Source: Acaryochloris marina MBIC11017 (GTDB taxonomy: Bacteria > Cyanobacteriota > Cyanobacteriia > Thermosynechococcales > Thermosynechococcaceae). From it: 32,000 bases of DNA. The translations under genes were made by a program, and so were the position numbers. Below are positions 8,198-31,065 of this stretch, one piece after another; within the stretch, counting starts at the first letter, position 1, and each line of letters opens with the position of its first letter. Location of the stretch: assembly GCF_000018105.1 (NCBI RefSeq), contig NC_009925.1:2580001-2612000 (forward strand), written 5' to 3'. Under the pieces are notes generated by a model. The model saw nothing but the letters and a program-made list of their open reading frames with translations. It did not search any database and was not told the origin of the DNA.

Positions 8198-9229
8198 TCA
8201 AAAATGTTGTAGGAAATGAACAACATCTAAATGCTGATTTTCTAACGCATAATCTATTGCCGTCTTCTGTTCCGCATCTTCATGTTTTGGATCTGCACCA
8301 GATTCCAGCAAAAGTTTTACAACAGAGAGCGATCCAGATTTAGCAGCTTCCAGTAAAGCAGTTGTCTTGTTATGAGTCATCGCATTGACATCCGCACCAA
8401 AACTGATCAACATCGCAACAATTTCGGGCTGCTTCGTTCGCATAATGGGGGTCATATCGTCATAGTCATCCGCTAAATTAGGATCAGCTCCAGATTCCAG
8501 TAAAGCGAGAGTCACTGGTAGTCGAAACTCTTCGAATCGCTTAATAACGGCAAGGTTTAATAGTGTTGATCCGCTCCGACAAAAATCATTGAGGGGGATA
8601 TCTGCCATTAAGAGTTTTTTGATTCCATCAACATCCCCCTCAAACACCACATCATAAGCAGTTTCCATCACAGGATTGATATTTTCATCTCTATACTTCT
8701 GTCGAATCCCTTTCTGCAAGAAATGCGCTGCATCACCCAATAATTCTGGTTGCGTCATGGGAAGTAAGAAGTCGTAAATATCCTGATGCCCCGACAAGGC
8801 AGCATAAATAATGGGCGGTTCTCCCAATACAGTTTGATTGGCATTCGCCCCAGCGCTAACCAAGAGCTGAACAAGATCTAAATATCCTTTGTCAGCCGCA
8901 ATAAATAATGGAGGATCAACCTCACGATGGATTGGCAGCGAAGGATTTGCACCCGCATTTAGCAGAGTAAAAACAATTTCATAATGATTGGCATATACTG
9001 CAGCAGTGAGTGCCGTTTCTTCCCCTACCGTAAGGTTTATATCTGCACCGTACTTGATCAATCGCTTTAATATTTCTAGACTTCCAGCCTGAGAGGCATG
9101 CTGCGCAGCACTGGCTAATTCCAGATCGCTCCATTGATTCTCAGCCAATATAATCTTGAACTGATCTAGATGATTACTGTTAATGGCATCCGTTAAGTTA
9201 AGCCACTCATAATTGATGCTTTCTGGCAT
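8198..9229 (-). CDS. Ankyrin-repeat protein
   Basis: 343 aa built almost entirely of ANK units (G(A/S)D(I/P/A)N..., LH/LL-A(A)--G----V--LL-(S/A)GA). Examples are LKRLIKYGADINL, TLLNAGANPSL, QLLVSAGANANQ, ALLESGADPNL, MLISFGADVNA and LLLESGADPKH. No signal peptide or TM helix is present. Confidence 0.85.
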   Translation of the reverse strand: MPESINYEWLNLTDAINSNHLDQFKIILAENQWSDLELASAAQHASQAGSLEILKRLIKYGADINLTVGEETALTAAVYANHYEIVFTLLNAGANPSLPIHREVDPPLFIAADKGYLDLVQLLVSAGANANQTVLGEPPIIYAALSGHQDIYDFLLPMTQPELLGDAAHFLQKGIRQKYRDENINPVMETAYDVVFEGDVDGIKKLLMADIPLNDFCRSGSTLLNLAVIKRFEEFRLPVTLALLESGADPNLADDYDDMTPIMRTKQPEIVAMLISFGADVNAMTHNKTTALLEAAKSGSLSVVKLLLESGADPKHEDAEQKTAIDYALENQHLDVVHFLQHF

Positions 9230-9326
9230 GGCAAATCATTATATTTCTATGCAGCTAACTGTTTGCATACCCCATAGCCTCACAAAAAATAATGATGAGG
9301 TCGCTTAACAAGCCAGGAAGCTCTCC

Positions 9327-9851
9327 TCAGAGATCTAAAGTCTGAAGAATAGATCGCAAAGCTTTCTCAGTAGAGATATCAGTCAGATCTCCCTCTGCAT
9401 TGATCTTTGCAGATATAGCTGGAATGCAGAGAATTGCTTCCTCTGGGATATCTGCCATCATCACCCGCAAGGTTTGCACCAATGATGCATTGGCTTTATC
9501 TCCGCCATCTGGAGACGGAGAGGCACTGATTACAGCCGTGGGTTTATCCATAAACTCACCTGAAGACACAATCCAATCCAGAGCATTTTTCAAGGTCCCT
9601 GGCACGCCATGGGCATATTCGGGCGTACAAAACAGGACGCCATCTGCGGCTTGTAATTGAGTCCGCCACTCCTTTACGGCGACAAGATCTAAATCGCCTT
9701 CTAACTCAGGATTAAAGTGGGGCAGTTGAGCAATACCGTTGTAGATTTTGACCTTGATGCCTGGGGGGGCTAAGCCAGCGATGGCATGGACTAGACGCGT
9801 GTTTGAGGATTGCAATCGCAAGCTCCCCGAAATTGCCAATATCGTTTTCAT
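9327..9851 (-). CDS. NAD(P)H-dependent FMN reductase family oxidoreductase
   Basis: MKTILAISGSLRLQSSNTRL...FCTPEYAHGVPGTLKNALDW is the flavodoxin-like FMN_red signature. Length 174 aa. Confidence 0.8.
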   Translation of the reverse strand: MKTILAISGSLRLQSSNTRLVHAIAGLAPPGIKVKIYNGIAQLPHFNPELEGDLDLVAVKEWRTQLQAADGVLFCTPEYAHGVPGTLKNALDWIVSSGEFMDKPTAVISASPSPDGGDKANASLVQTLRVMMADIPEEAILCIPAISAKINAEGDLTDISTEKALRSILQTLDL

Positions 9852-9884
9852 GAAGATTGCAGTTGAGGGAATAGGCGCACCGAC

Positions 9885-10608: not shown

Positions 10609-11829
10609 TTAGCCTTCTATTTGAGTCGCTAATTTTTTCCCCGCCCATTCCGACAAAATGGGGCCTAATAGGCAAGTGACGACAATATAGGCAATCACCG
10701 CATTAAAGATATTGTCATCCACTAAGCTGGCTTCTTTGCCAAATAACGTAATCACCAACACTAATGCCGCGCGGGGAATCGTCAAGCTGAACAGAGTCAA
10801 CACTTCCATCGGTTCATAGTTAAACCAGCGACCGACTATCCAGGCCGACAGCCATTTAGAGGCGACAGCACCCCCCACAATAACCCCAGCAATGCCTAAA
10901 CTACCGGGTGCCGATACAAACACGGTCGGATTAGCCAACACGCCCACCGACACCATAAACGCCGGAATAAAGAGACTATTACCGACAAAATCAATCCGGT
11001 TCATCAAATCGCTCTCCATGGGAATCGAACGATTCAAGGCCAAACCGGCAATAAAAGCCCCCACAATCGAATCTACCCCTAATCCCTGAGTGGCAGAGGC
11101 AATCACAAATAATGTGGCCACTACAAAAATAAACTGTAGCCCCAGGGAGACCTCTGCTTTGGGATTAAAAAAACAGTGCCCCAGTTGCGGAACACCCCAA
11201 AAACAGAGGGTCGTTAACAGCGGTAAACCCACCAGTAATTTTAGCCATAGGACTAACCCGATTTGCCCCTCGGCCATCGCCTGAATCAAGGCAAAGCCGA
11301 CTAACGTGAGTATTGCCGTCAGTACCGTTCCTCCCACCGCAACCCCAATAGATTCTCGCTGGGCCAACCCTAGCCGGGTCATACTCGGATAGGCCAACAG
11401 AGTATGAGGTGAATACAAAATTCCCAGTAATGCAGAAGCCAACCCACTCGAACCAGCCACTGCGATGATACCCATGCTGATCATCACCTGACCGGACACG
11501 ACGCCCACTGCGAAAGGCAGGCCAAAGGTGAGCAACCCAAACATAAGCGCTCGTACACCCAATCGCTGTAAGTCGCTCAGATCCATTTGCAGACCTGCTA
11601 GCAACATAATGTAGAGCAGACCCACTTTTTCTAAAAAAATCAGCTGGGTATCTCGGGCAATAATGCCTAAGCCATTACTACCTAACAAACAGCCTAAAAG
11701 GATGAGCACCACCAAAGCAGGCAGCTTTAAAGGCTTGGCAATCAGCGGTGCCAGCAGCAAAATGACCAGCAGCACACTAAAGGCATAGACCGGATCTTGT
11801 AAAGGTAGAATCAACGTCGCCATGGACAT
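10609..11829 (-). CDS. Cation:proton antiporter (CPA family, Na+/H+ exchanger-type membrane domain)
   Basis: 406-aa polytopic membrane protein with about 11-12 hydrophobic helices. The N-terminus (VLLVILLLAPLIAKPLKLPALVVLILLGCLLGSNGLGII) is typical of Kef/NapA-type exchangers. Confidence 0.75.
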   Translation of the reverse strand: MSMATLILPLQDPVYAFSVLLVILLLAPLIAKPLKLPALVVLILLGCLLGSNGLGIIARDTQLIFLEKVGLLYIMLLAGLQMDLSDLQRLGVRALMFGLLTFGLPFAVGVVSGQVMISMGIIAVAGSSGLASALLGILYSPHTLLAYPSMTRLGLAQRESIGVAVGGTVLTAILTLVGFALIQAMAEGQIGLVLWLKLLVGLPLLTTLCFWGVPQLGHCFFNPKAEVSLGLQFIFVVATLFVIASATQGLGVDSIVGAFIAGLALNRSIPMESDLMNRIDFVGNSLFIPAFMVSVGVLANPTVFVSAPGSLGIAGVIVGGAVASKWLSAWIVGRWFNYEPMEVLTLFSLTIPRAALVLVITLFGKEASLVDDNIFNAVIAYIVVTCLLGPILSEWAGKKLATQIEG

Positions 11830-12070
11830 GCAAGCAATCTTCCTGAGCAGGGTTTAAATTATTCTGAACTTCTTAACCTACCCGAATTCTTTTGGGTTAA
11901 ATCAGCCCGTTCGTTCTACGTTGTCGCCAATTTTACCGAGTTTTGGTAGGCAGGGAGTTTGGGCTTAAATCCCAGAATTTATACCAATCTGTCGAACTGT
12001 GATCAATGACATGCTAAGGCTGGTTTGTGCAGTGTATCTTGGATGAAGTGATGACAAGGTTTGGAGATCT

Positions 12071-13138
12071 ATGATTACCTGCACCAACTGCGGCCACGCT
12101 AACCCAGAAGGGGCCATTACTTGTGAAGCTTGCTATGTAGAGCTACCCAAAATGACGTCTTGCCCCAGTTGCCATGCTCAGGTACCCGAAGACGCCGTTT
12201 TTTGCTCCCAATGTGGCGCCTCATTACAACCAGGAGTTGAAGCCCCCGGTCTAGATATGGCGACTGCCCCCACTCAAGTCAATGCAGGTAAAGGTATTCC
12301 CGCCACCGATGTGGTCAACTTTGAGACCCCATCCGGAATCCCCGCCACTGATGTCGTGGTGCCCTTGCCCGATCCTCCCGCCATGGCACCTCCTGACCCA
12401 GTCGAAATGACAGAATTTCCAGATATGGAATTGGGATATGCCCCCACAGAAGTGACCCCTCCGGGCAGCCTTCCCCCTCCTTTGGCCGTCGAAATGAGTG
12501 AGCAACCTACGGAGAATGTGATACCACCGTCCTCTCTGCCCACTCCACCAGAACTCGATTTTGAAGAGCCGACTCCACCGATGCCGCCAGTATCGGAGCC
12601 TCCCATACCGCCCGCGGCCTCTCACCCCCCCATGCCGCCTGCTGCATCCCAACCACCGATGCCGCCCATGGAGTTTACTCCTCCTTCTCCTGCACCAGAG
12701 GCCCCTCCGACTCCTCCAGAACCAGTTGTTTCTGCCGCACCACAGCCCACCACCACTCCGATTCCTGAACAGCCTAAGCCCATGCCTGTCGGTGCCACGC
12801 AACTGCAATTACCCGTCGCACGACTGCTACATGAACGGTCTAACTCGAATCTAGATTTACCTACAAATCTCAACTTGGTCCATATTGGCAAGCCCAATGA
12901 TCGGATTCCTCCCGATATTGATGTATCGGGCTTTCCCGATAGTGATGTGGTGTCCAGAGTCCATGCCGATATCCGGGTTGAACCGGACGGCTATTACATC
13001 GAAGACACGGGCAGCGCCAACGGTACCTACGTCAATAATCAGCCGTTACGCCCTGGCGATCGCTATCGGTTACGGGCGGGCGATCGCATTTCCCTGGGCA
13101 AAGAAGATAAGGTCAGCTTTATCTTCCACCCCGGCTAA
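12071..13138 (+). CDS. FraH-like protein: N-terminal double zinc ribbon, long Pro-rich linker, C-terminal FHA domain
   Basis: Four CxxC pairs are present (CTNCG...CEAC...CPSCH...CSQCG). About 200 aa of P-rich low complexity follows, with internal repeats (GIPATDVV twice; PPAAS(H/Q)PPMPP twice). The FHA signature is VHIGKP...VSRVHADI...YYIEDTGSANGTYVNNQPL...GDRISLG. Confidence 0.8.
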   Translation: MITCTNCGHANPEGAITCEACYVELPKMTSCPSCHAQVPEDAVFCSQCGASLQPGVEAPGLDMATAPTQVNAGKGIPATDVVNFETPSGIPATDVVVPLPDPPAMAPPDPVEMTEFPDMELGYAPTEVTPPGSLPPPLAVEMSEQPTENVIPPSSLPTPPELDFEEPTPPMPPVSEPPIPPAASHPPMPPAASQPPMPPMEFTPPSPAPEAPPTPPEPVVSAAPQPTTTPIPEQPKPMPVGATQLQLPVARLLHERSNSNLDLPTNLNLVHIGKPNDRIPPDIDVSGFPDSDVVSRVHADIRVEPDGYYIEDTGSANGTYVNNQPLRPGDRYRLRAGDRISLGKEDKVSFIFHPG

Positions 13139-20537: not shown

Positions 20538-21491
20538 ATGATTATCATTGTTTCAAATCGTCGGGTGAACGAGGATCAAACCGATCACCGCTTGTTTGGA
20601 GAACGGGCGAATGTGAATGGTCTCGATGAAATTCGTTTAGCAACCGCTGACTACGATGAACCCTCACAACGGTGGCATCTATCCCTCGTTCCCGAAGGCG
20701 ATCTAGATGATGAAGACAGCCGCCCTAGCCACCAATTATTTCAGCGCGTTATGGCCGGGATTCAGGCCGGTCAGCATCAGAAAAACTGGGTGTTTTATAT
20801 TCACGGATTTAATCAATCCATGTTAGACAATCTCAATGCTTGTCGTGAAATCCAAACCCTCTATGACGTGGATGTCATTACCTTTGCATGGCCCTCGAAT
20901 CCAGGAGGGTTTGTGCTTGGCGAATATCAGCGCGCGCGACAGGCCGCTAGAGCATCCAGTAATGCCCTAGATCGCACCTTAGAACTGCTCGGGCGCTACC
21001 TAGCTAGCCGTTCCCTGGTAGAGATGCGGAACTGCCAGATTAGCCTAAATCTCCTCGTGCATAGCTTAGGCAATTATTTATTTGAGGATTTTGTCCGGGA
21101 TCCGGTCTTTAGTGATGAAACTCGCATCTTCGACAACATTATCTTTCACCAAGCGGATGCCGATAATCGCAACCATGCTCAATGGGTTGATCGCGTAGAG
21201 CATGGTCGCCGTATCTACATCACCCTCCATGAGGATGATTCAACCCTCAAAGCATCTGACATTATCAATCCAGGTCGCTTGGGCAATACCCTGGCCAATT
21301 TAAATGCCCAACGAGCAATCTATCTCGATTTTACGAATGGAGAGAATGTCGGCCGGTCCCATAACTTTTTTGATGGTCAGATTGAGAATGTCACCATCCA
21401 AACCATTTTTACCCGTCTACTCAATGGTCAGCGAGGAGAAACCGTAGCTGGCTTAAGCTTCGATCCAACCCTGAATGCTTTTCGGCTATAG
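20538..21491 (+). CDS. Alpha/beta hydrolase, DUF900-like (putative lipase/esterase)
   Basis: WVFYIHGFNQS (oxyanion region) and LLVHSLGNYL (nucleophile elbow; Ser codon at 21063-21065) match the DUF900-type alpha/beta hydrolase pattern. Length 317 aa, no signal peptide. Confidence 0.65.
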   Translation: MIIIVSNRRVNEDQTDHRLFGERANVNGLDEIRLATADYDEPSQRWHLSLVPEGDLDDEDSRPSHQLFQRVMAGIQAGQHQKNWVFYIHGFNQSMLDNLNACREIQTLYDVDVITFAWPSNPGGFVLGEYQRARQAARASSNALDRTLELLGRYLASRSLVEMRNCQISLNLLVHSLGNYLFEDFVRDPVFSDETRIFDNIIFHQADADNRNHAQWVDRVEHGRRIYITLHEDDSTLKASDIINPGRLGNTLANLNAQRAIYLDFTNGENVGRSHNFFDGQIENVTIQTIFTRLLNGQRGETVAGLSFDPTLNAFRL

Positions 21492-21583: not shown

Positions 21584-23335
21584 ATGTCTCGTAAACCATG
21601 GCACCAGCTTAAAACCCCCCTAGCCCTGATTAAGCTGCTCCAATTCCGAAATCGACTACGGGAAAATAATTTGCATGATACGGCTGCGATCGCACCCACA
21701 GATCACCTCCCCAAACCCAAGCCCAGTCCCGATGGTCGCCATTTTCGCGCCCGCACCGATGATGGCAGCTTTAACGATCTAGACCACCCTGAGATGGGAA
21801 TGGCTGGCACTCGGTTTGGTCGAAATGTGCCCTTGCAAGATGTCTATCCCGATGAGAAGGCTCTCTTAACGCCCAATCCGCGGGAGATTAGCCGTAAGGT
21901 GATGACTCGGGATGAGTTTATTCCCGCCACGATTTTGAATGTGCTAGCTGCCGCCTGGATCCAGTTTGAAAACCACGACTGGTTTTCCCATGGCGACAAC
22001 CAAACCAAACAGAAATTTCAGCTGCCCTTGGCGGACGATGATGACTGGCCTGCAGAGCATCGTCCCTTAGAGGTGGGTAAAACCGCCATTGATGAGACCC
22101 GCAAGGGAGATGAAAGCGGTGGTCCCCCCACCTTTATTAACACTGTCACCCACTGGTGGGATGGGTCTCAAATCTACGGCAGTGATAGCGCAACCGTTGC
22201 TAAACTCCGTTCCCATAAAGATGGCAAACTCACCATGGGAGACGATGGCCTATTGCCGTTAGATGATGGTGGCGTGGATTCCACTGGCTTTAACGATAAT
22301 TGGTGGGTGGGGCTGTCCTTACTGCATACGCTATTTGCCAAAGAGCATAATTTTATTTGCGATCGCCTCAAAGCGGAGTATCCATCCTGGTCCGATGACC
22401 AACTATTTGACCAAGCCCGCCTGATCAATGCTGCCTTAACCGCCAAAATCCACACGGCAGAATGGACCCCCGCCATTTTGCCCCTACCTGCCACCGATAT
22501 CGCCCTCAACGTCAACTGGGCAGGCTTCCTCGGGGAAGATTTTAGATATCTCTTTGGACATATCGGCGAAGGAGAACTGCTGAGCGGCATCCCAGGCTCC
22601 TCGACAGACCACCATACGGCCCCCTACTACCTAACGGAAGAATTTGTGTCCGTGTATCGGATGCATCCCCTAATCCCGGATGACTACCAATACTATGACC
22701 TGCAAGGAAAACTTCTGCAGGAGAGTGACTTTATGGCCTCTTCCGGCAAGCGGACCCGAGCCTTGGTGGAGGCGGTGGGGATGGACAATCTGTTCTACTC
22801 TTTGGGTATTACCCATCCAGGGGCCGTGACCCTCCATAACTTCCCTCGGTTTCTGCAGCTCCACAAGCGGGATAACGGGGAAGTCTTCGATCTAGCCGCC
22901 GTCGATATCCTCCGAGATCGCGAACGGGGAGTGCCTCGGTATAACCGCTTCCGAGAGTTAATCGGACGTAGCCGAGTTAAAAGTTTTGAGGAAATCACCA
23001 GCAATCCTGTTTGGGCCAAGGAACTACGGGAGGTCTATAACAACGACATCAACGCGGTTGATCTGATGGTAGGCATGTTTGCCGAAGATCTACCCGAAGG
23101 CTTTGGCTTTAGCGACACCGCCTTTCGCGTCTTTATCCTGATGGCCTCTCGCCGTCTGAAGAGCGATCGCTTCCTAAGCAAGGACTACCGCGCAGAAATT
23201 TATACCCCCTTCGGCTTGGAATGGATCTATCGCAACAATTTCATTACCCTCCTCAAACGTCACTACCCCAAACTGGCTCCTGCCCTAGTCGGCGTCAGCA
23301 ATGGCTTTGCCCCTTGGCGCAATCTTAGTCATTAG
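21584..23335 (+). CDS. Haem dioxygenase of the animal-peroxidase/cyclooxygenase superfamily (alpha-dioxygenase / linoleate dioxygenase-like)
   Basis: Motifs shared with plant alpha-DOX and COX are AAWIQFENHDWF (distal His, 21974-21976), THWWDGSQIYGS, LLHTLFAKEHNFICDRLK, IHTAEWTPAIL, FVSVYRMHPLIPD (Tyr 22655-22657 and proximal His 22664-22666, equivalent to YHWH in COX) and RERGVPRYNRFRE. A GGAGGA RBS lies 7 nt upstream of the ATG. Confidence 0.85.
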   Translation: MSRKPWHQLKTPLALIKLLQFRNRLRENNLHDTAAIAPTDHLPKPKPSPDGRHFRARTDDGSFNDLDHPEMGMAGTRFGRNVPLQDVYPDEKALLTPNPREISRKVMTRDEFIPATILNVLAAAWIQFENHDWFSHGDNQTKQKFQLPLADDDDWPAEHRPLEVGKTAIDETRKGDESGGPPTFINTVTHWWDGSQIYGSDSATVAKLRSHKDGKLTMGDDGLLPLDDGGVDSTGFNDNWWVGLSLLHTLFAKEHNFICDRLKAEYPSWSDDQLFDQARLINAALTAKIHTAEWTPAILPLPATDIALNVNWAGFLGEDFRYLFGHIGEGELLSGIPGSSTDHHTAPYYLTEEFVSVYRMHPLIPDDYQYYDLQGKLLQESDFMASSGKRTRALVEAVGMDNLFYSLGITHPGAVTLHNFPRFLQLHKRDNGEVFDLAAVDILRDRERGVPRYNRFRELIGRSRVKSFEEITSNPVWAKELREVYNNDINAVDLMVGMFAEDLPEGFGFSDTAFRVFILMASRRLKSDRFLSKDYRAEIYTPFGLEWIYRNNFITLLKRHYPKLAPALVGVSNGFAPWRNLSH

Positions 23336-23345
23336 GGCCTGTTCT

Positions 23346-24263
23346 ATGAAACACCAAACCGAAATCCAGCAATACTGGCCAGCAGCTCAGGACTTTGATC
23401 CGTTACCTGCAGACTATTCCAATTGGTCAGCGCAAAAAAAGCAGGCTTTTCTCTGGGATGAACGCATCCTCCAATCCACCTATGACCAAAACCCACCCAT
23501 TCCTCGGATCAATATTGTCGGGCTCATCTTGACCCCACTCATGATCAAAATGGATCGCCTGGAAGATGAAGCCCCCAGCCGTTGGCGCAAAGCTATCCAC
23601 CCCCATGGCGCTGTGGCCAAAATCAAGTTTGTCCCAGCGGGCGATAGTCCCTATACCGGACTGTTTAAAGGCGCAGACTATGGCTTGCTGAGGGCTTCTC
23701 TCACGGGCGATCCAGCAGATCGGGGATTTGCCCCTGGTCTAGCGATTAAGTTGCTGGCAGATGGCCAGCCTTCCGGCAACTTTTCTGCCCTCGTATCCCT
23801 CTCCGGTCAAGGCCAAAACTATAATTTCCTGGCTCATCGATTCTCCAATATTGTGCCTGTGGCTCAGGAGTTTGGCCCCCGATTCACGAACCTAATTTTT
23901 CGTCGGGTCACCAAATACCCTACCCGTATTGACCTTCAACACTTAGGTTCTACTACCCAGCAGGGTCAGGTCGAAGCACAGCCCCATACCCCCACCCAAG
24001 TCTTTCTCGTTCCCAATCCTGACCTGCAGTTTGCTGAAAGCCCCCATGACTTCCGAGCGGATCTGGCCCACATTCCCCCAGGTACCCAGTTGTTTTCTAT
24101 CTATGCAACGGATGCGGTCGATCCAGACGGGGAAACGATGACGGCTGGCGATCAACCTCAAGCCCAACTAATCGGACATTTGGAGACCACCTCCGAGTTT
24201 GTGGCTTCCTTCTACGGCGACAGTCAGCTCTTCTTTCGGCATCAGCGCTTCCGTAACCAGTAG
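23346..24263 (+). CDS. Small catalase-related haem protein (candidate fatty-acid hydroperoxide-transforming enzyme)
   Basis: RKAIHPHGAVAKIKF matches the catalase distal-His motif H-x-x-G-A-x-A-x-x-x-F (His codon 23598-23600). The C-terminal SFYGDSQLFFRHQR resembles the catalase proximal-Tyr motif FSY-x-D-T-Q-x-x-R (Tyr codon 24213-24215). At about 305 aa it is comparable to known ~33-kDa mini-catalases. It starts 10 nt after the dioxygenase stop. The track ORF start at 23301 overlaps the upstream gene and is unlikely to be real. Confidence 0.6.
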   Translation: MKHQTEIQQYWPAAQDFDPLPADYSNWSAQKKQAFLWDERILQSTYDQNPPIPRINIVGLILTPLMIKMDRLEDEAPSRWRKAIHPHGAVAKIKFVPAGDSPYTGLFKGADYGLLRASLTGDPADRGFAPGLAIKLLADGQPSGNFSALVSLSGQGQNYNFLAHRFSNIVPVAQEFGPRFTNLIFRRVTKYPTRIDLQHLGSTTQQGQVEAQPHTPTQVFLVPNPDLQFAESPHDFRADLAHIPPGTQLFSIYATDAVDPDGETMTAGDQPQAQLIGHLETTSEFVASFYGDSQLFFRHQRFRNQ

Positions 24264-24290: not shown

Positions 24291-25799
24291 ATGACCTCAG
24301 ACATTATCTTTCAGCCCTTAGAGTGGCGCAATCTAACGGTTAAAAATCGCATTTTCCGATCCAGCATCTCAGGGCGTTGGGATAACTACGATGGTTCGGG
24401 CACCCAAGCCCGGATCAATTGGGAAGAGCAGTTTGCCCAGGGTGGCGTCGGTGCCATTATCTCGTCCTATACCCCCATTCATATTGAAGGACGGATTGTG
24501 CCGAATGCTGCCATGATTGACTCGGACGACCGCATTCCCTTCTGGAAAAAGGTTGGCGAGACGGTTCATCAGCACGACTGCAAGTTTATCCTCCAGCTCA
24601 GCCATTCGGGGCGTCAGCGCGATATTGATGGGGTCGAAAATACCGTTCCCGATTCCTTTAAGCCCACACCTGCCCTGAGTGCAACGACCCTCTCAGAACA
24701 GATTCATGGGTTCCGCTGTCGCCAGATGACCCAGACAGAAATCCAGCAGACGGTACAAAGGTTTGCGGATGGGGCGCACCGGGCTCGGGAAGCTGGACTA
24801 GATGGCGTGGAATTACATAGCTCCCATGGCTATCTGATTACCCAATTCCTCAGTTCTGGCATCAATATTCGCAATGATGACTATGGGGGGTCTCTCGAAA
24901 ATCGATATCGGTTCCTGCAGGAAATTGTCCAGGCTATTCGCCAAACTGTCGGTGATGATTTTCATCTCCAGGCCAAGATTAGTGCCGTGGACTATAACAA
25001 TGTCTTGCCCTGGGAACGGAAGGGCAACACCCTATCTGAGTCCATTCAAGTCTGTCAGTGGCTCGAACGAGATGGGGTAGATGCTCTCCATATTTCTCGG
25101 GGCAGTACCTTTCCCCATCCCCTATTACCCGCAGGGCCTTTTCCCTTTAAGATTGCCACCTCCACCTACGACACGATGATTTCCAGTGCCCCGTGGCGCA
25201 CCCTCCTCAATTACTTTCTATTTCGCAGTCCCTTACTTCAGCCCTTTTTTAAGTGCATCTGGAATCGCTTGGAGCGGCATTGGCAGCCTCCCGTTAAAGG
25301 CGATCGTCTCTCGTCAGATTCTCTCTCCCACTTGATGCAAGAGCATATCTCTACCCATGAGTTTCAGGCCCTATTAGCCCGCTACCAAGGCACGGTTATG
25401 GAAGATGCCCAGGCCATTAAGGAACAGGTCAATATTCCTGTTATTTGCACCGGCGGCTTCCAGCAAGCCTCTTTTATCCGGCAAGCGATTGAGAAGGGAT
25501 TCTGTGATGGTGTTACCCTTGCCCGCCCGCTGGTCGCCAATAAGGATCTGGCCCACCAGTTTCAGGCAGGAAACGATATTCCCGAGCGACCTTGTACCTA
25601 TTGCAATCAATGCTTGGGGAGTTATCTGGAGTATCCCCTGGGCTGCTATGAACGCCGTCGATATTACCAGCGCTCTATTACTGGCGCAGATAAAGCGGAG
25701 CAAGATAAAGCGGCACGAGAAGCCCATGACGCCATGATTCAAGATGCTATGCGGGTTTATAGCCCACCGCCCTTTAGCCCGGCCGAGCAAACGGCATAA
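24291..25799 (+). CDS. Old Yellow Enzyme-family NADH:flavin oxidoreductase with a C-terminal 4Fe-4S-type Cys motif
   Basis: OYE/2,4-dienoyl-CoA-reductase-like motifs are present: LTVKNRIFRSS, ILQLSHSGRQ, AGLDGVELHSSHGYLITQFLS, RNDDYGGSLENRYRF and ICTGGF. A CxxCxxCx10C motif (CTYCNQCLGSYLEYPLGC, 25593-25646) is also present. At 502 aa, the protein has no C-terminal FAD/NAD(P)H domain. Confidence 0.8.
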   Translation: MTSDIIFQPLEWRNLTVKNRIFRSSISGRWDNYDGSGTQARINWEEQFAQGGVGAIISSYTPIHIEGRIVPNAAMIDSDDRIPFWKKVGETVHQHDCKFILQLSHSGRQRDIDGVENTVPDSFKPTPALSATTLSEQIHGFRCRQMTQTEIQQTVQRFADGAHRAREAGLDGVELHSSHGYLITQFLSSGINIRNDDYGGSLENRYRFLQEIVQAIRQTVGDDFHLQAKISAVDYNNVLPWERKGNTLSESIQVCQWLERDGVDALHISRGSTFPHPLLPAGPFPFKIATSTYDTMISSAPWRTLLNYFLFRSPLLQPFFKCIWNRLERHWQPPVKGDRLSSDSLSHLMQEHISTHEFQALLARYQGTVMEDAQAIKEQVNIPVICTGGFQQASFIRQAIEKGFCDGVTLARPLVANKDLAHQFQAGNDIPERPCTYCNQCLGSYLEYPLGCYERRRYYQRSITGADKAEQDKAAREAHDAMIQDAMRVYSPPPFSPAEQTA

Positions 25800-25831: not shown

Positions 25832-27328
25832 ATGAGCAGTACACCCTTTTTCCAGAAAGTCTGTCGTAACTTCAAGCGGTTAGCCCTAGGGCTGGTTAGC
25901 CTAGTTTTAGTGATCGTTTTATGTCTGGCATGGCCCCTATTGACGGCGCGGTCCCCTCAATACACGGACATTACCGACCATTTTAAGTATGGCTCGATTG
26001 GCGGTGCCTCCACCATGGGAATTCCCTATTGGATTTGGCAAGTGATGCCGGTGATGTTTCCGGAGTACCTACCCACTGAGGACTACGCTACCCCTGGGAC
26101 AGGCTATACCCAACTGGGCTTTATGCAGGAACCGGGGCAAGATCTGCCTATTGGGTTTGCCAAGGATACCCAATTAGGGTTGGAAGTGGTGACCAATAAC
26201 TGTGCCCTTTGCCATGTGGGTAGTATTCGCAACACCTCTGATGGCCTACCGCAAGCCATCCCGACGATGCCGTCTAACACTGTTAATTTGTCAGCCTATT
26301 TTCGATTTATTACTGGCGTTGCCGATGATCCTCGGTTTAATGCTCGGGAAATGATGCCCTATATCAAGGATTTGGGGGCCGATCTGAATCCCTTGCAGTC
26401 CCTGCTCTATCGCTATATTGCTATTCCCCAAACCCGGGCGTTACTCAGCATCCAAGCCGAGAAGCTCAGTTTCTTGTCGGATCAGCCCCAGTACGGTCCG
26501 GGGCGAGTAGACACCTTTACCCCTTATAAAACCCGCACCTTTAATATCAACCTAGATGACCTCCCGCCTGAAGAAATTGAAGGAGCAGCCAGCGACTTTC
26601 CCAGTGTTTGGCAGCAACGCCCCCGGGAAGGTATGCAGCTCCACTGGGATGGTGACAATACCTCCGTGGCGGAACGGAATAAGAGCGCTGCTTTAGCTCT
26701 GGTCTCCCCCACCAATATTAATTTGGATGCCATTACCCGAGTGGCCGACTGGTTGTTGGATCTCCCGGCTCCGCCCTATCCCTATCCCGTGAATGAGGAG
26801 CTGGCTGTCCAGGGGCAATCTATCTTTGCCAACACCTGTGCCAGCTGCCATGCCTTTGACGGTCCAAAGGTCGGAATCGTGACGCCCATTGCAGAAATCG
26901 GTACCGATCCAGGTCGCTTAAATTCTTATACCTATGAATTTGCCTCGAATCAGTACACGCTGTTTGCGGGGATTACCTATAAAGGCGAAGATCAGCGGTT
27001 TACTCACTTCCGCAAAACCCACGGCTATGCCAACCATCCCTTAGACGGATTGTGGTTGCGATCGCCTTATCTACACAACGGCTCAGTCCCGACCCTAGAG
27101 GATCTGCTCAATCCGCCTGAGCAACGCCCAGCTAAGTTTTATCGGGGTAATGATGTCTATGACCCAGACAAAGTGGGGTTTGTGGCAGATGTTGCCGCAG
27201 CCAACGGCAGCAAATTTTTCGAATATGATACGTCGCTGCCAGGGAATGGCAAGGAAGGCCATCTCTATGGAACCACTTTGTCTAAGTCAGACAAAACAGC
27301 TCTGATCGAGTATTTGAAGACCCTTTAA
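25832..27328 (+). CDS. Membrane-anchored di-haem c-type cytochrome, CCP/MauG-like C-terminal domain (paralog 1)
   Basis: It has an N-terminal TM (LALGLVSLVLVIVLCLAWPLL) and two CxxCH motifs (CALCH 26201-26215; CASCH 26837-26851). LWLRSPYLHNGSVPTLEDLL resembles the conserved (A/S)PY(F/M)HDGS..TLE motif of bacterial di-haem cytochrome c peroxidases. Confidence 0.7.
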   Translation: MSSTPFFQKVCRNFKRLALGLVSLVLVIVLCLAWPLLTARSPQYTDITDHFKYGSIGGASTMGIPYWIWQVMPVMFPEYLPTEDYATPGTGYTQLGFMQEPGQDLPIGFAKDTQLGLEVVTNNCALCHVGSIRNTSDGLPQAIPTMPSNTVNLSAYFRFITGVADDPRFNAREMMPYIKDLGADLNPLQSLLYRYIAIPQTRALLSIQAEKLSFLSDQPQYGPGRVDTFTPYKTRTFNINLDDLPPEEIEGAASDFPSVWQQRPREGMQLHWDGDNTSVAERNKSAALALVSPTNINLDAITRVADWLLDLPAPPYPYPVNEELAVQGQSIFANTCASCHAFDGPKVGIVTPIAEIGTDPGRLNSYTYEFASNQYTLFAGITYKGEDQRFTHFRKTHGYANHPLDGLWLRSPYLHNGSVPTLEDLLNPPEQRPAKFYRGNDVYDPDKVGFVADVAAANGSKFFEYDTSLPGNGKEGHLYGTTLSKSDKTALIEYLKTL

Positions 27329-27380
27329 GGTCCGTATCATACCTATCTATTTTTACCTACCTAAAATTGGAGCCAGTCAA

Positions 27381-27815
27381 GTGAGCACACAAAATCCCTA
27401 TGCAAAATGGTTTGGCTATGTCGTTTGGCTGGGCATCGCCGTCAATCTTCTATTTATTATTCCCATTTGTTTTTTCCCTGAATGGCTGCTTTCTCTCCTC
27501 AGGATGACTATTCCTATCCCGATTATTTGGGTGCGAGCGGCAGGGTTATTGCTCTTGGAAATTAGCATTCTGTATATTCCGGGAGCGCTGGATCCGTATC
27601 GATATCGAGCGACCGCATGGATGTCAGTTCTGGTCACCCGGGGTGGTGGAGCCTCGTTTTTCTTGATTGCCGTGCTGTTTTTTGGTCAAGAACTGGGCTT
27701 TCTTTCCATTGCCATTGTGGATCTAATTTTTGGGGTCACAGAGGGCATTCTGCTGTATTTAGCGATGCAAGACAAAACGGCTCTTGCAAACCAATCCTAT
27801 TCTGAGCCGGTCTAG
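27381..27815 (+). CDS. Small hypothetical 4-TM membrane protein
   Basis: 144-aa ORF with a GTG start, GGAG 8 nt upstream and four hydrophobic helices. It sits between the two di-haem paralogs on the same strand. Confidence 0.5.
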   Translation: MSTQNPYAKWFGYVVWLGIAVNLLFIIPICFFPEWLLSLLRMTIPIPIIWVRAAGLLLLEISILYIPGALDPYRYRATAWMSVLVTRGGGASFFLIAVLFFGQELGFLSIAIVDLIFGVTEGILLYLAMQDKTALANQSYSEPV

Positions 27816-27913
27816 TCGGCCGACAAACTGGGCCAAATTGGGGCCTCAAAAACTAAGTTCAAGCGGATTAGCAAGAGGGTCGAATGCCCGATCGTTGCTG
27901 ACGTTATCAAGGA

Positions 27914-29338
27914 ATGAAGACTATGCTTGGCAAAAAAATCGCCACCACCTTACTGATTCTGGGCCTGCTCGTGGGCACGGTGGTCTATATTGGCTGGTAC
28001 AATCTCCTGCGCGAAGTGGACACCTATATCGAATCGCCAGCCGAACATTTTAAGTATGGATCAATCGGGACAGAAAATGATCAAGGGGTTCCCTACTGGA
28101 TTTGGATGGTGCTCCCTCGCCTTTTTCCGGAATATTTACCCGGAACCAACGGCTATACTTCCTTGGGCTTTACCTGGGAACCCGGTCAGGAAACCCCGGT
28201 GGGCGTCTCTAAAAAAACGATTGGTTTTCCTCGCCAAGGCATTACCTGTGCCGTTTGCCATTCAGCAACCTATCGCAAAGCGCCTGAGGACAATCCCATC
28301 ATTGTGCCAGCTGGCCCCTCGGTCAAATTTAATTCCTTGGGCTATGTGCGCTTTTTGCAGGCTTGTGCCCAAGATCCCAGATTTACGGCAGACTACATTT
28401 TGCCTGAGATTGAATACAACCATTCCTTATCGGCTTTTGAGAAGTTACTCTACCGATTTCTGATTATTCCCACGACCCGCAAGGAAATGCTTGAGCAGGG
28501 CGAATCCTTTGCCTGGACCAATTCTCGACCCAATTGGGGACCGGGGCGTATCGATCCTTTTAACCCCGTGAAATTCAATATGCTAGCTATCCCCATAGAT
28601 GACACCATCGGCAACTCCGATATGATGTCGCTTTGGAATCAAAAGCAACATCAAGGATTTGCCCTGCACTGGGATGGTTTGGAAACCTCCCTCACAGAAA
28701 CGGTGAATACCGGTGCCTTGGGAGATGGAGCCACTCGTAAATCCATCAATATTGAAGGGCTACAACGGGTCGAAAAATATATCACAGAACTGGATCCACC
28801 CCAATTCCCTTTTGCCATCGATCAAGCTGCTGCCGCCAAGGGCGAAAAGGTATTTGACCAGCACTGTGCCACTTGCCATGCCTTTGGCGGTGAGCGCACG
28901 GGCACCGTTATCCCCCAGCAAGAAGTCGGCACCGATCGCCACCGACTGGACATGTGGACCCAAGAAGCAGCGGATAAATATAACGCCTTTGCGGAAGGGT
29001 ACGACTACGACTTTGACCAGTTACGGAAAACCGATGGCTATCTCTCCGTGAGCTTAGATGGGTTGTGGTTACGAGCCCCCTATCTGCACAATGGGTCAGT
29101 ACCTAGCTTGCAAGATTTACTCAAAACCCCAGATGCACGGACGCCAGTGTTTTACCGAGGCTACGATGTCTATGACCCCGACGCCGTCGGCTTTATTTCG
29201 CAAGGTGCGGAGGCTGAGAGGGTTGGATTTGAATACGACACATCCGTAGTGGAAAATAGTAATCAGGGGCATGTATACGGCACCAATTTACCTGACAAGG
29301 ATAAGGCGACATTAATTGAATATCTAAAAACCCTGTAA
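27914..29338 (+). CDS. Membrane-anchored di-haem c-type cytochrome, CCP/MauG-like (paralog 2)
   Basis: Collinear with 25832-27328. Shared blocks are HFKYGSIG, PYWIW, FPEYLP, GPGR(V/I)D, LHWDG, DGLWLR(S/A)PYLHNGSVP, FYRG.DVYDPD.VGF and LIEYLKTL. CxxCH motifs are CAVCH (28247-28261) and CATCH (28865-28879). ATG at 27923 has better spacing from AAGGA than the track start at 27914. Confidence 0.7.
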   Translation: MKTMLGKKIATTLLILGLLVGTVVYIGWYNLLREVDTYIESPAEHFKYGSIGTENDQGVPYWIWMVLPRLFPEYLPGTNGYTSLGFTWEPGQETPVGVSKKTIGFPRQGITCAVCHSATYRKAPEDNPIIVPAGPSVKFNSLGYVRFLQACAQDPRFTADYILPEIEYNHSLSAFEKLLYRFLIIPTTRKEMLEQGESFAWTNSRPNWGPGRIDPFNPVKFNMLAIPIDDTIGNSDMMSLWNQKQHQGFALHWDGLETSLTETVNTGALGDGATRKSINIEGLQRVEKYITELDPPQFPFAIDQAAAAKGEKVFDQHCATCHAFGGERTGTVIPQQEVGTDRHRLDMWTQEAADKYNAFAEGYDYDFDQLRKTDGYLSVSLDGLWLRAPYLHNGSVPSLQDLLKTPDARTPVFYRGYDVYDPDAVGFISQGAEAERVGFEYDTSVVENSNQGHVYGTNLPDKDKATLIEYLKTL

Positions 29339-29436: not shown

Positions 29437-29772
29437 TTACATCGTGTCGACTAAAAACAAACCCTGCAATATTTCCTGATGTAAGTTAGTCGCGTTGGCA
29501 GAGGCAAGACCAGCGCAGAGCAATGTGCAGCCATAGTAATAGTGACTGAGGGCCGTTACTGCTTCAGCATCACCATAGGCCAGGGTAGGAAATCGATATT
29601 GTTTAGACCCCAGCAACGGATACTTTTCTTGATCCGGCTGAGAGATCTCGGCCACAAGTTTGCTTTTTTCGAGAATCTCCTGGATTGGCGATAACTGGGC
29701 TATCCGTTCCAGTCGGTTAACTTCACCCGCTGGCTTGATCAAATGGGTCTGGATGTTGAAGAACGTACGCAT
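29437..29772 (-). CDS. Hypothetical protein
   Basis: 111-aa ORF with no recognisable motif. It is the only sizeable ORF in this interval and is divergent from devB. Confidence 0.4.
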   Translation of the reverse strand: MRTFFNIQTHLIKPAGEVNRLERIAQLSPIQEILEKSKLVAEISQPDQEKYPLLGSKQYRFPTLAYGDAEAVTALSHYYYGCTLLCAGLASANATNLHQEILQGLFLVDTM

Positions 29773-29880: not shown

Positions 29881-31065
29881 ATGACGGTCCCAGAAGCAAA
29901 GCGACGAGGCGGCAAATGGTTGATAGTTATCCTGGGATCCTCGCTACTGATGAGTGCCTGTGGATTGCTGCAAGCACAGCCCACCCCTACCCCCACTCCC
30001 AAAACCGTTAAGTCCAACCGAGTAGTGGCTCGGGGCAAGATCATTCCTGAATTTGATGTGATCAAATTATCGGTATCGAATGCTGAAGACAGTCGAGTCA
30101 ATCGGATTTTGGTCAAAGTCGGCGATCGTGTCCGTGCCAATCAGGTGATTGCGACACTTCAAGGGGCTGATCGGCGGCTCGCCGATCTAAAAGCCGCCCA
30201 AACCAACGTTAAGCTCTTACAGGCCCGCTTGATTAAAGCTAAACAAGGGGATGCCAAACCCGGTGGTATTGCTGCCCAGCAAGCCGTTGTGATCCGGTTG
30301 GAAACCCAGCTACCCGTTGAGATTAAACAAAAGGAAGCCGAGATTGTCAGTGCCCAAGCCTCCTTGCGAGAGGCCGCACTCACCTATCAACGTCGTCAAC
30401 AACTCTTTCAACAGGGCGCGATTAGCAGGGCCGAAGTAGATACTGCTCGTGAGGAATTTGAGACCACGCACGCTACCTTAGCGACCCAAATCGCCTCCTT
30501 AGAACAAACGGTCACTACTTTAAAAGCACAAATCCAAGAGGCAAAGGCCCGACTCGCTGAACTTCAGCAGGTTCGACCCATCGACGTTACCATCGCCCAG
30601 GCCGAACTGGAACGCGCCTTCATTGAAGTTGAGCAACGGCGGGCCGATTATAACGATACCCAAGTGCGAGCCCCCATTCCTGGCCAAATTCTGCGCATCA
30701 ATACCAAGGTGGGAGAGCAGGTGAATACCCAGCTGGGCATTGTCGACCTGGGACGAACCGAGCAAATGTTTGTCCAGGCGGAAGTCTATGAAACGGATGT
30801 GAGTAAGGTGCAGAAAGGCCAACGAGCTACGATTCTCAGTGAATATGGTGGATTTGAAGGGGAGATCCAGGGGGTGGTGGATGATGTTGGTCTCCAGATT
30901 GACCCTCGGACCTTATCAACCGGAAATAACAACCCAACGACCGACGAAAATGCTCGGGTCGTCAATGTTTCCATTCGCATCGATCCAGACGATAGCCCCA
31001 TTGTCGCTGGCCTGACGAATATGCAAGTCAGAGTCACCATTGACTTACAGGAGAAGGCCGGATGA
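29881..31065 (+). CDS. devB: ABC-exporter membrane fusion protein, DevB family
   Basis: RVVARGKIIPEFDVIKLSVSN...RVNRILVKVGDRVRANQVIATL, a long coiled coil and VRAPIPGQILRINTKVGE fit the DevB/HlyD pattern. The N-terminus has a lipobox-like LLMSAC. The gene is followed by devC with an ATGA overlap. Confidence 0.8.
   Translation: MTVPEAKRRGGKWLIVILGSSLLMSACGLLQAQPTPTPTPKTVKSNRVVARGKIIPEFDVIKLSVSNAEDSRVNRILVKVGDRVRANQVIATLQGADRRLADLKAAQTNVKLLQARLIKAKQGDAKPGGIAAQQAVVIRLETQLPVEIKQKEAEIVSAQASLREAALTYQRRQQLFQQGAISRAEVDTAREEFETTHATLATQIASLEQTVTTLKAQIQEAKARLAELQQVRPIDVTIAQAELERAFIEVEQRRADYNDTQVRAPIPGQILRINTKVGEQVNTQLGIVDLGRTEQMFVQAEVYETDVSKVQKGQRATILSEYGGFEGEIQGVVDDVGLQIDPRTLSTGNNNPTTDENARVVNVSIRIDPDDSPIVAGLTNMQVRVTIDLQEKAG

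Follow-up and report, generated by a model that had tools for sequence, protein, structure and literature searches.

Membrane-anchored RoxA-like di-haem paralogs, a four-helix partner and an Fe-S ene-reductase: a candidate module for fatty-acid hydroperoxide chemistry in Acaryochloris marina and other bacteria

Two di-haem paralogs flank a four-helix membrane protein

The window analysed here is a stretch of 32,000 nucleotides from Acaryochloris marina MBIC11017 (RefSeq assembly GCF_000018105.1, contig NC_009925.1, positions 2,580,001 to 2,612,000 of the forward strand), and positions below are counted from its first letter. A preliminary description of this DNA had drawn attention to two collinear paralogs, each with an N-terminal membrane anchor, two CxxCH haem-attachment sites and a PYLHNGSVP motif, on either side of a protein with four transmembrane (TM) helices. 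All of these elements lie where that description had placed them, and we refer to the three genes as dhA, TM4 and dhB:

25832-27328, + strand: dhA, A-type RoxA-like di-haem c protein, 498 aa (PF21419, NF040606, AlphaFold2 and Foldseek)
25880-25942, + strand: dhA signal-anchor helix, L17-L37 (Kyte-Doolittle peak 2.75; AlphaFold2 helix 5-38)
26201-26215, + strand: dhA haem-1 site C124-A-L-C-H128 (CALCH, residues 124-128), aligned with RoxA C191-x-x-C194-H195
26639-26680, + strand: dhA L270-H-W-D-G274...E281-R-N283, polar motif around the inter-haem Trp, aligned with RoxA Q300-F301-W302-D303-G304
26837-26851, + strand: dhA haem-2 site C336-A-S-C-H340 (CASCH, residues 336-340), a CxxCH motif
27065-27091, + strand: dhA PYLHNGSVP, residues 412-420 (the "MauG motif"), aligned with RoxA PYFHNGSVP; core of the PF21419 match
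27257-27274, + strand: dhA G476-H477-L-Y-G-T, with H477 the predicted distal ligand of haem 2, aligned with RoxA H641
27381-27815, + strand: TM4, 144 aa, four predicted helices, free of His (AlphaFold2 and hydrophobicity)
27914-29338, + strand: dhB, B-type paralog, 474 aa (NF040606 168.7 bits; placed in the B clade)
within 27914-29338, + strand: dhB anchor I9-L32, CAVCH 112-116, LHWDG 251-255, CATCH 318-322, PYLHNGSVP 389-397 and GHVYGT 452-457

The dhA and dhB proteins align from end to end with 42% identity (E 9e-133). Each has a basic N-terminus, a single hydrophobic helix of 21-24 residues, the two CxxCH sites, PYLHNGSVP and a C-terminal GH.YGT...EYLKTL; dhA also carries HFKYGSIG and GPGRVD. 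This set of motifs is not a product of chance, since 90 homologues from many phyla show little or no variation in the two CxxCH sites, PYLHNGSVP and the C-terminal GH.YG.

RoxA-like family membership and predicted haem environment

Both proteins exceed the curated cut-off of 150 bits for NF040606 (CytoC_perox, "di-heme cytochrome c peroxidase"), dhA with 185.8 and dhB with 168.7 bits, and both match PF21419, the 39-residue RoxA-like_Cyt-c motif, above its gathering score of 26.7 (dhA residues 398-436, 56.3 bits; dhB residues 375-413, 49.4 bits). Their other Pfam matches are generic cytochrome c signals at the second haem. PF03150 CCP_MauG, the model of the classical cytochrome c peroxidases (CCPs), matched neither protein at E <= 0.1, and scores of 51-74 bits against the NCBIfam equivalogs for RoxA, RoxB and RoxC compare with cut-offs of 900-1000, which neither protein reaches. 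RoxA (4b2n) was the sole solved structure matched by sequence. It was also the sole significant Foldseek match (4b2n_A, E 4e-11, probability 1.00, query TM-score 0.47; next match E 0.02) of an AlphaFold2 model of dhA that was built from a 42-sequence alignment, A1, and reached a predicted local confidence (pLDDT) of 82 and a predicted TM-score (pTM) of 0.83; matches of this model to MauG were weak (E 0.05-0.7). These profile and structure searches uphold the RoxA-like kinship that the preliminary description had raised and, to judge from them, dhA and dhB fall within the RoxA branch of the CCP/MauG superfamily but are not rubber oxygenases.

RoxA of Xanthomonas sp. 35Y has a haem 1 with a proximal His only, a Trp between the haems (W302) and a bis-His haem 2 (H394/H641); its distal pocket is hydrophobic (F301, A316, F317) and its haems are of low potential, at -65 and about -130 to -160 mV (PMC4496055). 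The A1 profile is collinear with it. C124, C127 and H128 of dhA fall on C191, C194 and H195 of the O2-binding haem, L270-H271-W272-D273-G274 on Q300-F301-W302-D303-G304, PYLH415NGSVP on PYFHNGSVP and H477 on H641. By alignment, the putative ligand set is therefore of the RoxA type (H128 for H195, W272 for W302, H477 for H641), and all three residues are invariant in the homologues. The hydrophobic distal pocket of the rubber oxygenases is not conserved: an invariant His271 takes the place of F301, and F317 falls in an insertion by S285-A286. Since F301 lines the distal pocket of RoxA, His271 should sit over haem 1, and the pocket of dhA should be polar rather than hydrophobic. Residue roles in dhA and dhB, here and below, are taken from the profile alignment with RoxA and not from coordinates.

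Like RoxA, dhA and dhB have two c-type haems in the same order, and the haem-1 CxxCH, the Trp of W-D-G, PY[FL]HNGSVP, the distal His of haem 2 and the C-terminal (Y/F)(L/I)KTL all align. Unlike RoxA, they are about 490 aa long rather than about 660 aa, are anchored in the membrane rather than secreted, have His in place of F301 followed by an invariant E-R-N, and occur as an A/B pair with a four-helix partner and an old yellow enzyme (OYE). With the classical di-haem CCPs and MauG (PF03150) they share two c haems, a Trp between them and a P-Y-x-H-x-G motif, but their predicted haem-2 distal ligand is His and not Met or Tyr, and their N-terminal halves are unrelated in sequence. The preliminary description had considered these halves to be unlike classical CCPs, which agrees with the absence of a classical CCP Pfam match; the LHWDG element that it listed among the unfamiliar motifs is, however, the counterpart of the RoxA F301-W302-D303-G304 region with the inter-haem Trp.

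An ancient and asymmetric A/B pair

To place the pair we drew on a locus sample consisting of the best 80 dhA matches and 5 chosen loci, and the frequencies given in this and the following sections apply to that sample. Both dhA and dhB are present in 65/80 loci (tblastn). Wherever both were called as genes the order is A then B (26/26 loci), and the reverse was never seen. In a neighbour-joining tree of 90 sequences with gappy columns trimmed, the B types form a monophyletic clade (37/37 B-like, 0 A-like) that includes dhB of the window; the raw, untrimmed alignment with midpoint rooting did not separate the two types, and it was the trimming that resolved the B clade. We conclude that the A/B pair is ancient and asymmetric.

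The haem sites, PYLHNGSVP and the distal His are retained in A and B types alike, with the distal His in at least 95% of each. The types differ beside haem 1. H-W-D-G and the downstream E-R-N are invariant in all 53 A-type sequences (53/53), whereas the B type is variable at both, with LHWDGLETSLTETV in cyanobacteria, N-W-D-G elsewhere, or no Trp. From this asymmetry we infer that dhA is presumably the catalytic subunit.

The cluster and its upstream genes

The three genes close a series of seven closely packed + strand open reading frames (ORFs) at 20.5-29.3 kb of the window, with intergenic gaps of -35 to 98 nt. The upstream features are as follows:

20538-21491, + strand: DUF900 alpha/beta-hydrolase, a possible lipase, which opens the cluster (PF05990, E 3e-12)
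21584-23335, + strand: cyclooxygenase (COX)-like haem dioxygenase/peroxidase (DOX), 583 aa (An_peroxidase PF03098, E 1e-113)
23346-24263, + strand: protein of approximately 305 aa, the "catalase" of the preliminary description; the longest ORF, 320 aa, begins at 23301
24291-25799, + strand: Fe-S OYE, 502 aa (Oxidored_FMN, E 7e-64; HSSHGY at residues 176-181)
25593-25646, + strand: OYE Cys motif CTYCNQCLGSYLEYPLGC, residues 435-452, near the C-terminal end of the OYE

A scan for promoters and terminators placed no promoter-like site in the intergenic gaps of the seven-gene cluster. It found fewer promoter-like sites than in shuffled controls and terminator-like hairpins within genes only, and was otherwise uninformative; an obvious internal promoter, which would have argued for separating dhA and dhB from the upstream genes, is at any rate not among its results. 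Beyond dhB lie a small convergent ORF of no family (29437-29772) and, beginning about 540 nt 3' of dhB, a gene at 29881-31065 for a DevB-family membrane-fusion protein of an ATP-binding cassette exporter (TIGR02971, 248 bits), which is not kept beside the module at other loci.

The An_peroxidase-family protein and the OYE both lack a signal peptide, in keeping with the cytoplasmic location first proposed for the upstream enzymes. The best Protein Data Bank (PDB) matches of the OYE are enzymes of the YqjM/FadH type, and the YqjM-type H-x-x-H-G-Y site is kept. Its C-terminal end carries C-x2-C-x2-C-x10-C, retained in 30/32 OYEs beside dhA; we take this spacing to be that of the 4Fe-4S site of FadH (2,4-dienoyl-CoA reductase) and trimethylamine dehydrogenase, whose N-terminal module the motif resembles. 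No FAD/NAD(P)H module follows the Cys motif. The DUF900 hydrolase adjoins DOX in one further sampled locus (L003).

The 320-aa ORF overlaps the DOX stop by 35 nt and, because its relatives are 302-312 aa long, the true start is probably Met16 (23346). The view that this ORF encodes a catalase found no support in our searches: it had no NCBIfam match, and no relevant match was found in Pfam (E <= 5) or, by phmmer or a 25-sequence profile, against the PDB. Its relatives are mostly cyanobacterial and nearly all named "hypothetical", with a single UniRef cluster named "Catalase" (P0473). H-x-H-G and S-F-Y-G-D are invariant in the family, and the gene adjoins DOX in 6 cyanobacterial loci.

Distribution and genomic context

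A word-indexed search put the number of relatives above 7,500, with those nearest to dhA from Acaryochloris-like cyanobacteria. In an exhaustive profile search of 1.84 billion representatives, 6,360 clusters (at 50% identity) matched at E <= 1e-3, of which 1,393 remained at E <= 1e-30. The best 80 loci come from Cyanobacteriota, Acidobacteriota, alpha-, beta- and gamma-proteobacteria, Verrucomicrobiota, Chloroflexota, Nitrospirota and Myxococcota. When the window proteins were compared with these loci by tblastn, two types of context were found.

Type I, the context of the window, has OYE, dhA, usually TM4 and dhB, and often an An_peroxidase DOX. The OYE gene adjoins dhA in 41/85 loci, lying 18-280 nt upstream of it in 32/34 cases, and OYE-positive loci span at least six phyla, among them cyanobacteria, Acidobacteriota, alpha- and gamma-proteobacteria, Chloroflexota and Myxococcota. 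Among the 49 loci with full flanks, OYE is present in 24, TM4 in 20 and DOX in 12. OYE and TM4 occur together in 18, OYE without TM4 in 6, TM4 without OYE in 2 and neither in 23 (Fisher p 1.6e-6); the corresponding counts for OYE and DOX are 11, 13, 1 and 24 (Fisher p 7.6e-4). Over the whole sample DOX is present in 20/85 loci, 18 of which have OYE, and a DOX or a lipoxygenase occurs in 21/41 OYE-type loci compared with 2/44 loci without OYE. The preliminary description had named the DOX and putative catalase pair as the genes to check for co-occurrence with dhA and dhB. The constant partner is instead the Fe-S OYE, but an association with fatty-acid dioxygenases survives in a wider form, with a lipoxygenase replacing DOX in other cyanobacteria.

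The cyanobacterial loci illustrate this exchange. A 92%-identical relative (L081) has the same seven genes and a GDSL-like lipase, and Moorena producens JHB (L082) has, in order, DOX, P450, a short-chain dehydrogenase/reductase, OYE, dhA, TM4 and dhB. In the latter an IS605 OrfB/TnpB-type gene (3354-4616 of L082) lies between DOX and P450. Nostoc, Pleurocapsa and Aetokthonos are without DOX, and directly after dhB have genes for a lipoxygenase, an ABM monooxygenase-like protein, a saccharopine-dehydrogenase-like protein and a multi-TM patatin. The lipoxygenase (about 546 aa; PF00305, E about 1e-60) was located at:

L005, 13389-15041: lipoxygenase
L006, 6473-8113: lipoxygenase
L083, 13463-15103: lipoxygenase

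Two unrelated fatty-acid dioxygenases, the COX-like DOX and lipoxygenase, thus alternate beside the same OYE-dhA-TM4-dhB core, and one or the other is present in 10/12 cyanobacterial loci with sufficient flank. The preliminary description held that finding dhA and dhB across cyanobacteria without dioxygenase genes would speak against their link to the cluster; where the haem DOX is missing, we found it usually replaced in this way. In a cyanobacterial metagenome-assembled genome (L027) a VAO/ALO-type FAD oxidase (8316-9860) stands at the usual place of OYE, so the flavoenzyme partner is exchangeable; in the same locus an EthD-domain protein (12028-12780) follows TM4. Lipases of the patatin, GDSL and DUF900 kinds recur near the module, as does P450.

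Type II loci, mostly from beta- and gamma-proteobacteria, Nitrospiraceae and Verrucomicrobiota, are without OYE and have the order c1, sol158, c5, dhA, dhB:

L013-L060: Type II loci; for example L014, 324-9162, and L038, 4000-12861

Here c1 is a di-haem protein of 650-920 aa whose C-terminal half is homologous to the family (hhalign probability 99.2%), sol158 is a soluble protein of about 150-300 aa with no Pfam match, and c5, of about 800 aa with two CxxCH sites, could not be linked to the family by homology (hhalign probability 15%). Oxidoreductases of the glucose-methanol-choline family and patatin- or Tle1-like phospholipases are frequent in the vicinity. About half of the sampled loci are without OYE and DOX and have other di-haem genes in their place.

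TM4 and natural fusions

TM4 had no Pfam or NCBIfam match. MAPEG or another known fold was considered and rejected, as the best PDB match by Foldseek of its AlphaFold2 model (pLDDT 74) had an E of 1.6 and was not a MAPEG protein; an electron wire of haem b through TM4 was ruled out by the absence of His. Its co-occurrence with OYE and its fusions mark TM4 as a dedicated partner of the di-haem proteins.

About one sixth of the best 150 representatives are extended at the N-terminus. The following fusions were identified by BLAST against the window proteins:

P0251, 1025 aa: OYE (47% identity over 452 aa, E 7e-130, Cys motif included), about 90 residues, one TM helix and an A-type di-haem domain (E 2e-125)
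P0243: TM4, a fifth helix and a dhA-like domain
P0245: TM4 and dhB (53% identity)
P0271 and P0292: two copies of TM4 and dhB
P0241 and P0254: sol158 and dhA
L001, ORF 11011-11865: TM4 and sol158

In P0251 the dhA anchor helix is the sole TM link between the OYE and di-haem parts. Three other representatives (P0298, P0263 and P0296) have, ahead of the anchor, an additional N-terminal domain of about 300 aa, and P0263 also has an additional multi-helix hydrophobic N-terminal region. Compared by hhalign with the N-terminal domains of P0298 and P0263, the 305-aa protein showed no more than a motif-level resemblance to the former (E 0.005, probability 7%) and no match to the latter.

The attachment of c-type haem takes place on the outer side of the membrane. 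Together with the fusion architectures, this gives a consistent predicted topology: OYE and sol158 would be cytoplasmic, TM4 would have both ends in the cytoplasm and the haem domains would face outward. We consider it very likely from the fusions that these proteins assemble physically across the membrane, and the proposal that dhA and dhB are tied to the genes upstream of them gains from both the OYE-dhA and TM4-dh fusions and the synteny across phyla. Electron transfer through the bilayer is implausible, because TM4 is free of His and a single helix lies between OYE and dhA. Coupling between the two sides must therefore be via a lipophilic substrate or through co-localisation.

Discussion

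The closest characterised analogue of dhA and dhB is, in our view, the oleate-diol synthase pair PA2077/PA2078 of Pseudomonas aeruginosa. These proteins ("FadCcp") are periplasmic tandem RoxA-like paralogs that share one operon and about 43% of their residues, and are described as having almost no homologues outside P. aeruginosa; PA2077 is an oleate 10S-dioxygenase whose activity requires both haems, PA2078 is a 7,10-diol synthase that converts the hydroperoxide to the 7,10-diol, and the Trp kept in PA2077 (W251) is Ser in PA2078 (S243) (PMC4496055). The dhA/dhB pair is likewise one of tandem di-haem RoxA-like paralogs, with 42% mutual identity, a location probably on the periplasmic side and a bridging Trp that is kept more strictly in one paralog than in the other. 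In both systems PY[FL]HNGSVP is followed by the distal His, at 62 residues in dhA (H415-H477) and 58 in FadCcp (H553-H611), and the C-terminal residue is Leu. In contrast, dhA and dhB are anchored proteins of 474-498 aa with a haem spacing of 206-212 residues, whereas the P. aeruginosa proteins are of 624-634 aa (about 65 kDa) with cleavable signal peptides and a spacing of 235-245. The anchors of 21-24 residues in dhA and dhB have no AxA site, and the same helix is internal in the fusions. No TM4 or OYE partner is reported for PA2077/PA2078, and the dhA/dhB clade is very large.

RoxA itself cleaves polyisoprene at its C=C bonds and, by analogy, it may matter that the characterised relatives (RoxA, PA2077 and PA2078) all activate oxygen or peroxide for lipid-like substrates. 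We propose that dhA, TM4 and dhB form an outward-facing haem enzyme complex of the RoxA/FadCcp type for unsaturated fatty acids or, more likely, their hydroperoxides, a reading that we regard as an even call. The three proteins would form a membrane-embedded assembly with the di-haem domains facing the periplasm or the thylakoid lumen. In this assembly dhA would be catalytic, with haem 1 as the reaction centre under a polar distal pocket formed by His271, perhaps together with Glu281-Arg282-Asn283, and Trp272 would link haem 1 to a bis-His haem 2 (His340/His477); dhB would be a diverged partner and TM4 a membrane scaffold. The module may make up half of a bilayer-spanning pathway. As we picture the order of steps, a cytoplasmic lipase would release the fatty acid, the haem DOX of the window or the lipoxygenase of other cyanobacteria would then form the hydroperoxide, an accessory protein (the 305-aa protein here, P450 elsewhere) and the Fe-S OYE, as an ene-reductase, would process enone or enal products, and lipophilic intermediates would arrive at the outward haem enzymes via the membrane. 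We favour hydroperoxides as the substrate because of the polar pocket and of the neighbouring dioxygenases that form them.

Parts of such a pathway have parallels elsewhere. Nostoc punctiforme has a 10S-DOX and a catalase-related 10S-hydroperoxide lyase (Brash 2014, as summarised in PMC13049297). The window shows the same two-gene layout, with a COX-like An_peroxidase gene directly followed by the gene for a protein of about 305 aa; the Nostoc system, in the form given in that summary, consists of two cytoplasmic enzymes, without di-haem, TM4 or OYE genes. A looser analogy, and one of gene content only, is with plants. The octadecanoid (jasmonate) pathway uses a lipase, a lipoxygenase (LOX), the allene oxide synthase AOS (CYP74) and OPR3, which is an OYE, and the cluster likewise joins an OYE to a lipase-like hydrolase, to DOX or LOX as the fatty-acid dioxygenase and to a protein that would transform the hydroperoxide, which in Moorena is P450. 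Di-haem c proteins and a four-helix partner are absent from the plant pathway, and the OYE of the cluster differs in carrying a 4Fe-4S motif and in being without a built-in NAD(P)H module. To our knowledge, few bacterial oxylipin enzymes have been characterised, namely PA2077/PA2078 and LoxA of P. aeruginosa and the 10S-DOX and lyase of Nostoc.

Several observations weigh against the proposed role in fatty-acid hydroperoxide chemistry. The TM-score with RoxA is 0.47, dhA and dhB are about 150 aa shorter than RoxA, and the likeness to PA2077/PA2078 draws on the positions of motifs as published and on the RoxA similarity that both share. A simple peroxidase would be served just as well by a polar distal pocket. 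The His-free TM4 offers no haem b to carry electrons across the membrane and, because the dioxygenases (DOX and lipoxygenases), OYE and the 305-aa protein are all without signal peptides, the hand-over of substrate across the bilayer is assumed. Finally, 44/85 loci are without OYE (DOX or LOX in 2 of them) and have other di-haem proteins instead; the core job of the family therefore need not involve enzymatically made oxylipins.

The strongest competing explanation is that dhA and dhB are protective peroxidases of the outer or lumenal face, where they would reduce H2O2 or the hydroperoxides of lipids with a soluble c-type cytochrome or plastocyanin as donor, while OYE would clear reactive enals and enones from the cytoplasm, so that the system would serve damage control and not oxylipin formation. 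OYEs commonly detoxify electrophiles, which fits such a role, as do the NCBIfam name "di-heme cytochrome c peroxidase", the absence of a dioxygenase from many loci and the polar distal region of the A type (His271; Glu-Arg-Asn) where RoxA is hydrophobic (F301, A316, F317). PA2078, too, has been proposed in published work to limit hydroperoxide toxicity. We nevertheless think this explanation unlikely. Haem 2 is predicted to be bis-His, as in the low-potential RoxA, whereas in classical CCPs electrons enter through a high-potential His/Met haem; PF03150 CCP_MauG gave no match, the cluster is without a donor cytochrome gene, and a neighbourhood with two kinds of hydroperoxide-producing dioxygenase and with lipases looks biosynthetic.

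It is improbable that dhA and dhB are C=C-cleaving dioxygenases of the RoxA type acting on isoprenoid membrane components (carotenoids, polyprenols or quinone tails) rather than on fatty acids. RoxA is indeed the sole significant match both in structure and in PDB sequence, and both the bridging Trp and the bis-His haem 2 have been kept; however, at 51-74 bits the proteins fall far short of the RoxA/RoxB/RoxC equivalog cut-offs of 900-1000, the pocket residue F301 is His in dhA, the surrounding genes are those of fatty-acid dioxygenases, lipases and an ene-reductase and not carotenoid or isoprenoid genes, and the proteins are anchored in the membrane instead of being secreted. Most database names of relatives ("c-type cytochrome", "cytochrome c" or "mono/diheme cytochrome c family protein") and weak CcoP, c6 and c550 model matches around each CxxCH might suggest ordinary c-type cytochromes that transfer electrons in a side chain of respiration or photosynthesis. 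This is very improbable in view of a length of about 490 aa for only two haems, the RoxA fold and MauG motif, the invariant polar residues beside haem 1, the lack of oxidase or reductase partner genes and of His in TM4, and the fusion to a cytoplasmic flavoenzyme over one helix, which cannot conduct electrons.

Returning to an outward-facing enzyme complex for fatty-acid hydroperoxides, a bolder proposal, which we consider doubtful on balance, is that dhA/TM4/dhB and the Fe-S OYE constitute a phylum-spanning transmembrane oxylipin metabolon that is new to description. The outer di-haem enzymes and the inner flavo/Fe-S and haem enzymes would act sequentially on the same membrane-dissolved hydroperoxide, with TM4 as conduit or scaffold. 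If this were true, cyanobacteria, Acidobacteriota, Chloroflexota and many proteobacteria would produce diffusible oxylipins like those that P. aeruginosa uses as quorum signals.

The family as such is already known through the curated hidden Markov model NF040606 and the Pfam motif PF21419. Our literature search for members of the dhA/dhB clade, for the TM4 partner and for the association with OYE, DOX or LOX found no paper on any of these and turned up only those on P. aeruginosa and RoxA. The proteins are set apart from RoxA and FadCcp by their size, membrane anchoring, pocket residues, dedicated four-helix partner and transmembrane pairing with an Fe-S ene-reductase. What emerges is a large clade of uncharacterised RoxA/FadCcp-like haem enzymes that in at least six phyla is tied by gene order and fusions to ene-reductases, lipases, lipoxygenases and COX-like dioxygenases, and the putative seven-gene operon and the natural single-polypeptide fusions offer an experimental handle for expression. 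If the proposed role is correct, the clade would hold new haem catalysts for the oxygenation of C-H or C=C bonds, and the presence of DOX and LOX genes beside "cytochrome c" genes in cyanobacteria would be explained. Moreover, should oxylipins be what the module makes or transforms, much of the bacterial world would share in a chemistry of signalling and defence that is known from plants, fungi and one pathogen.

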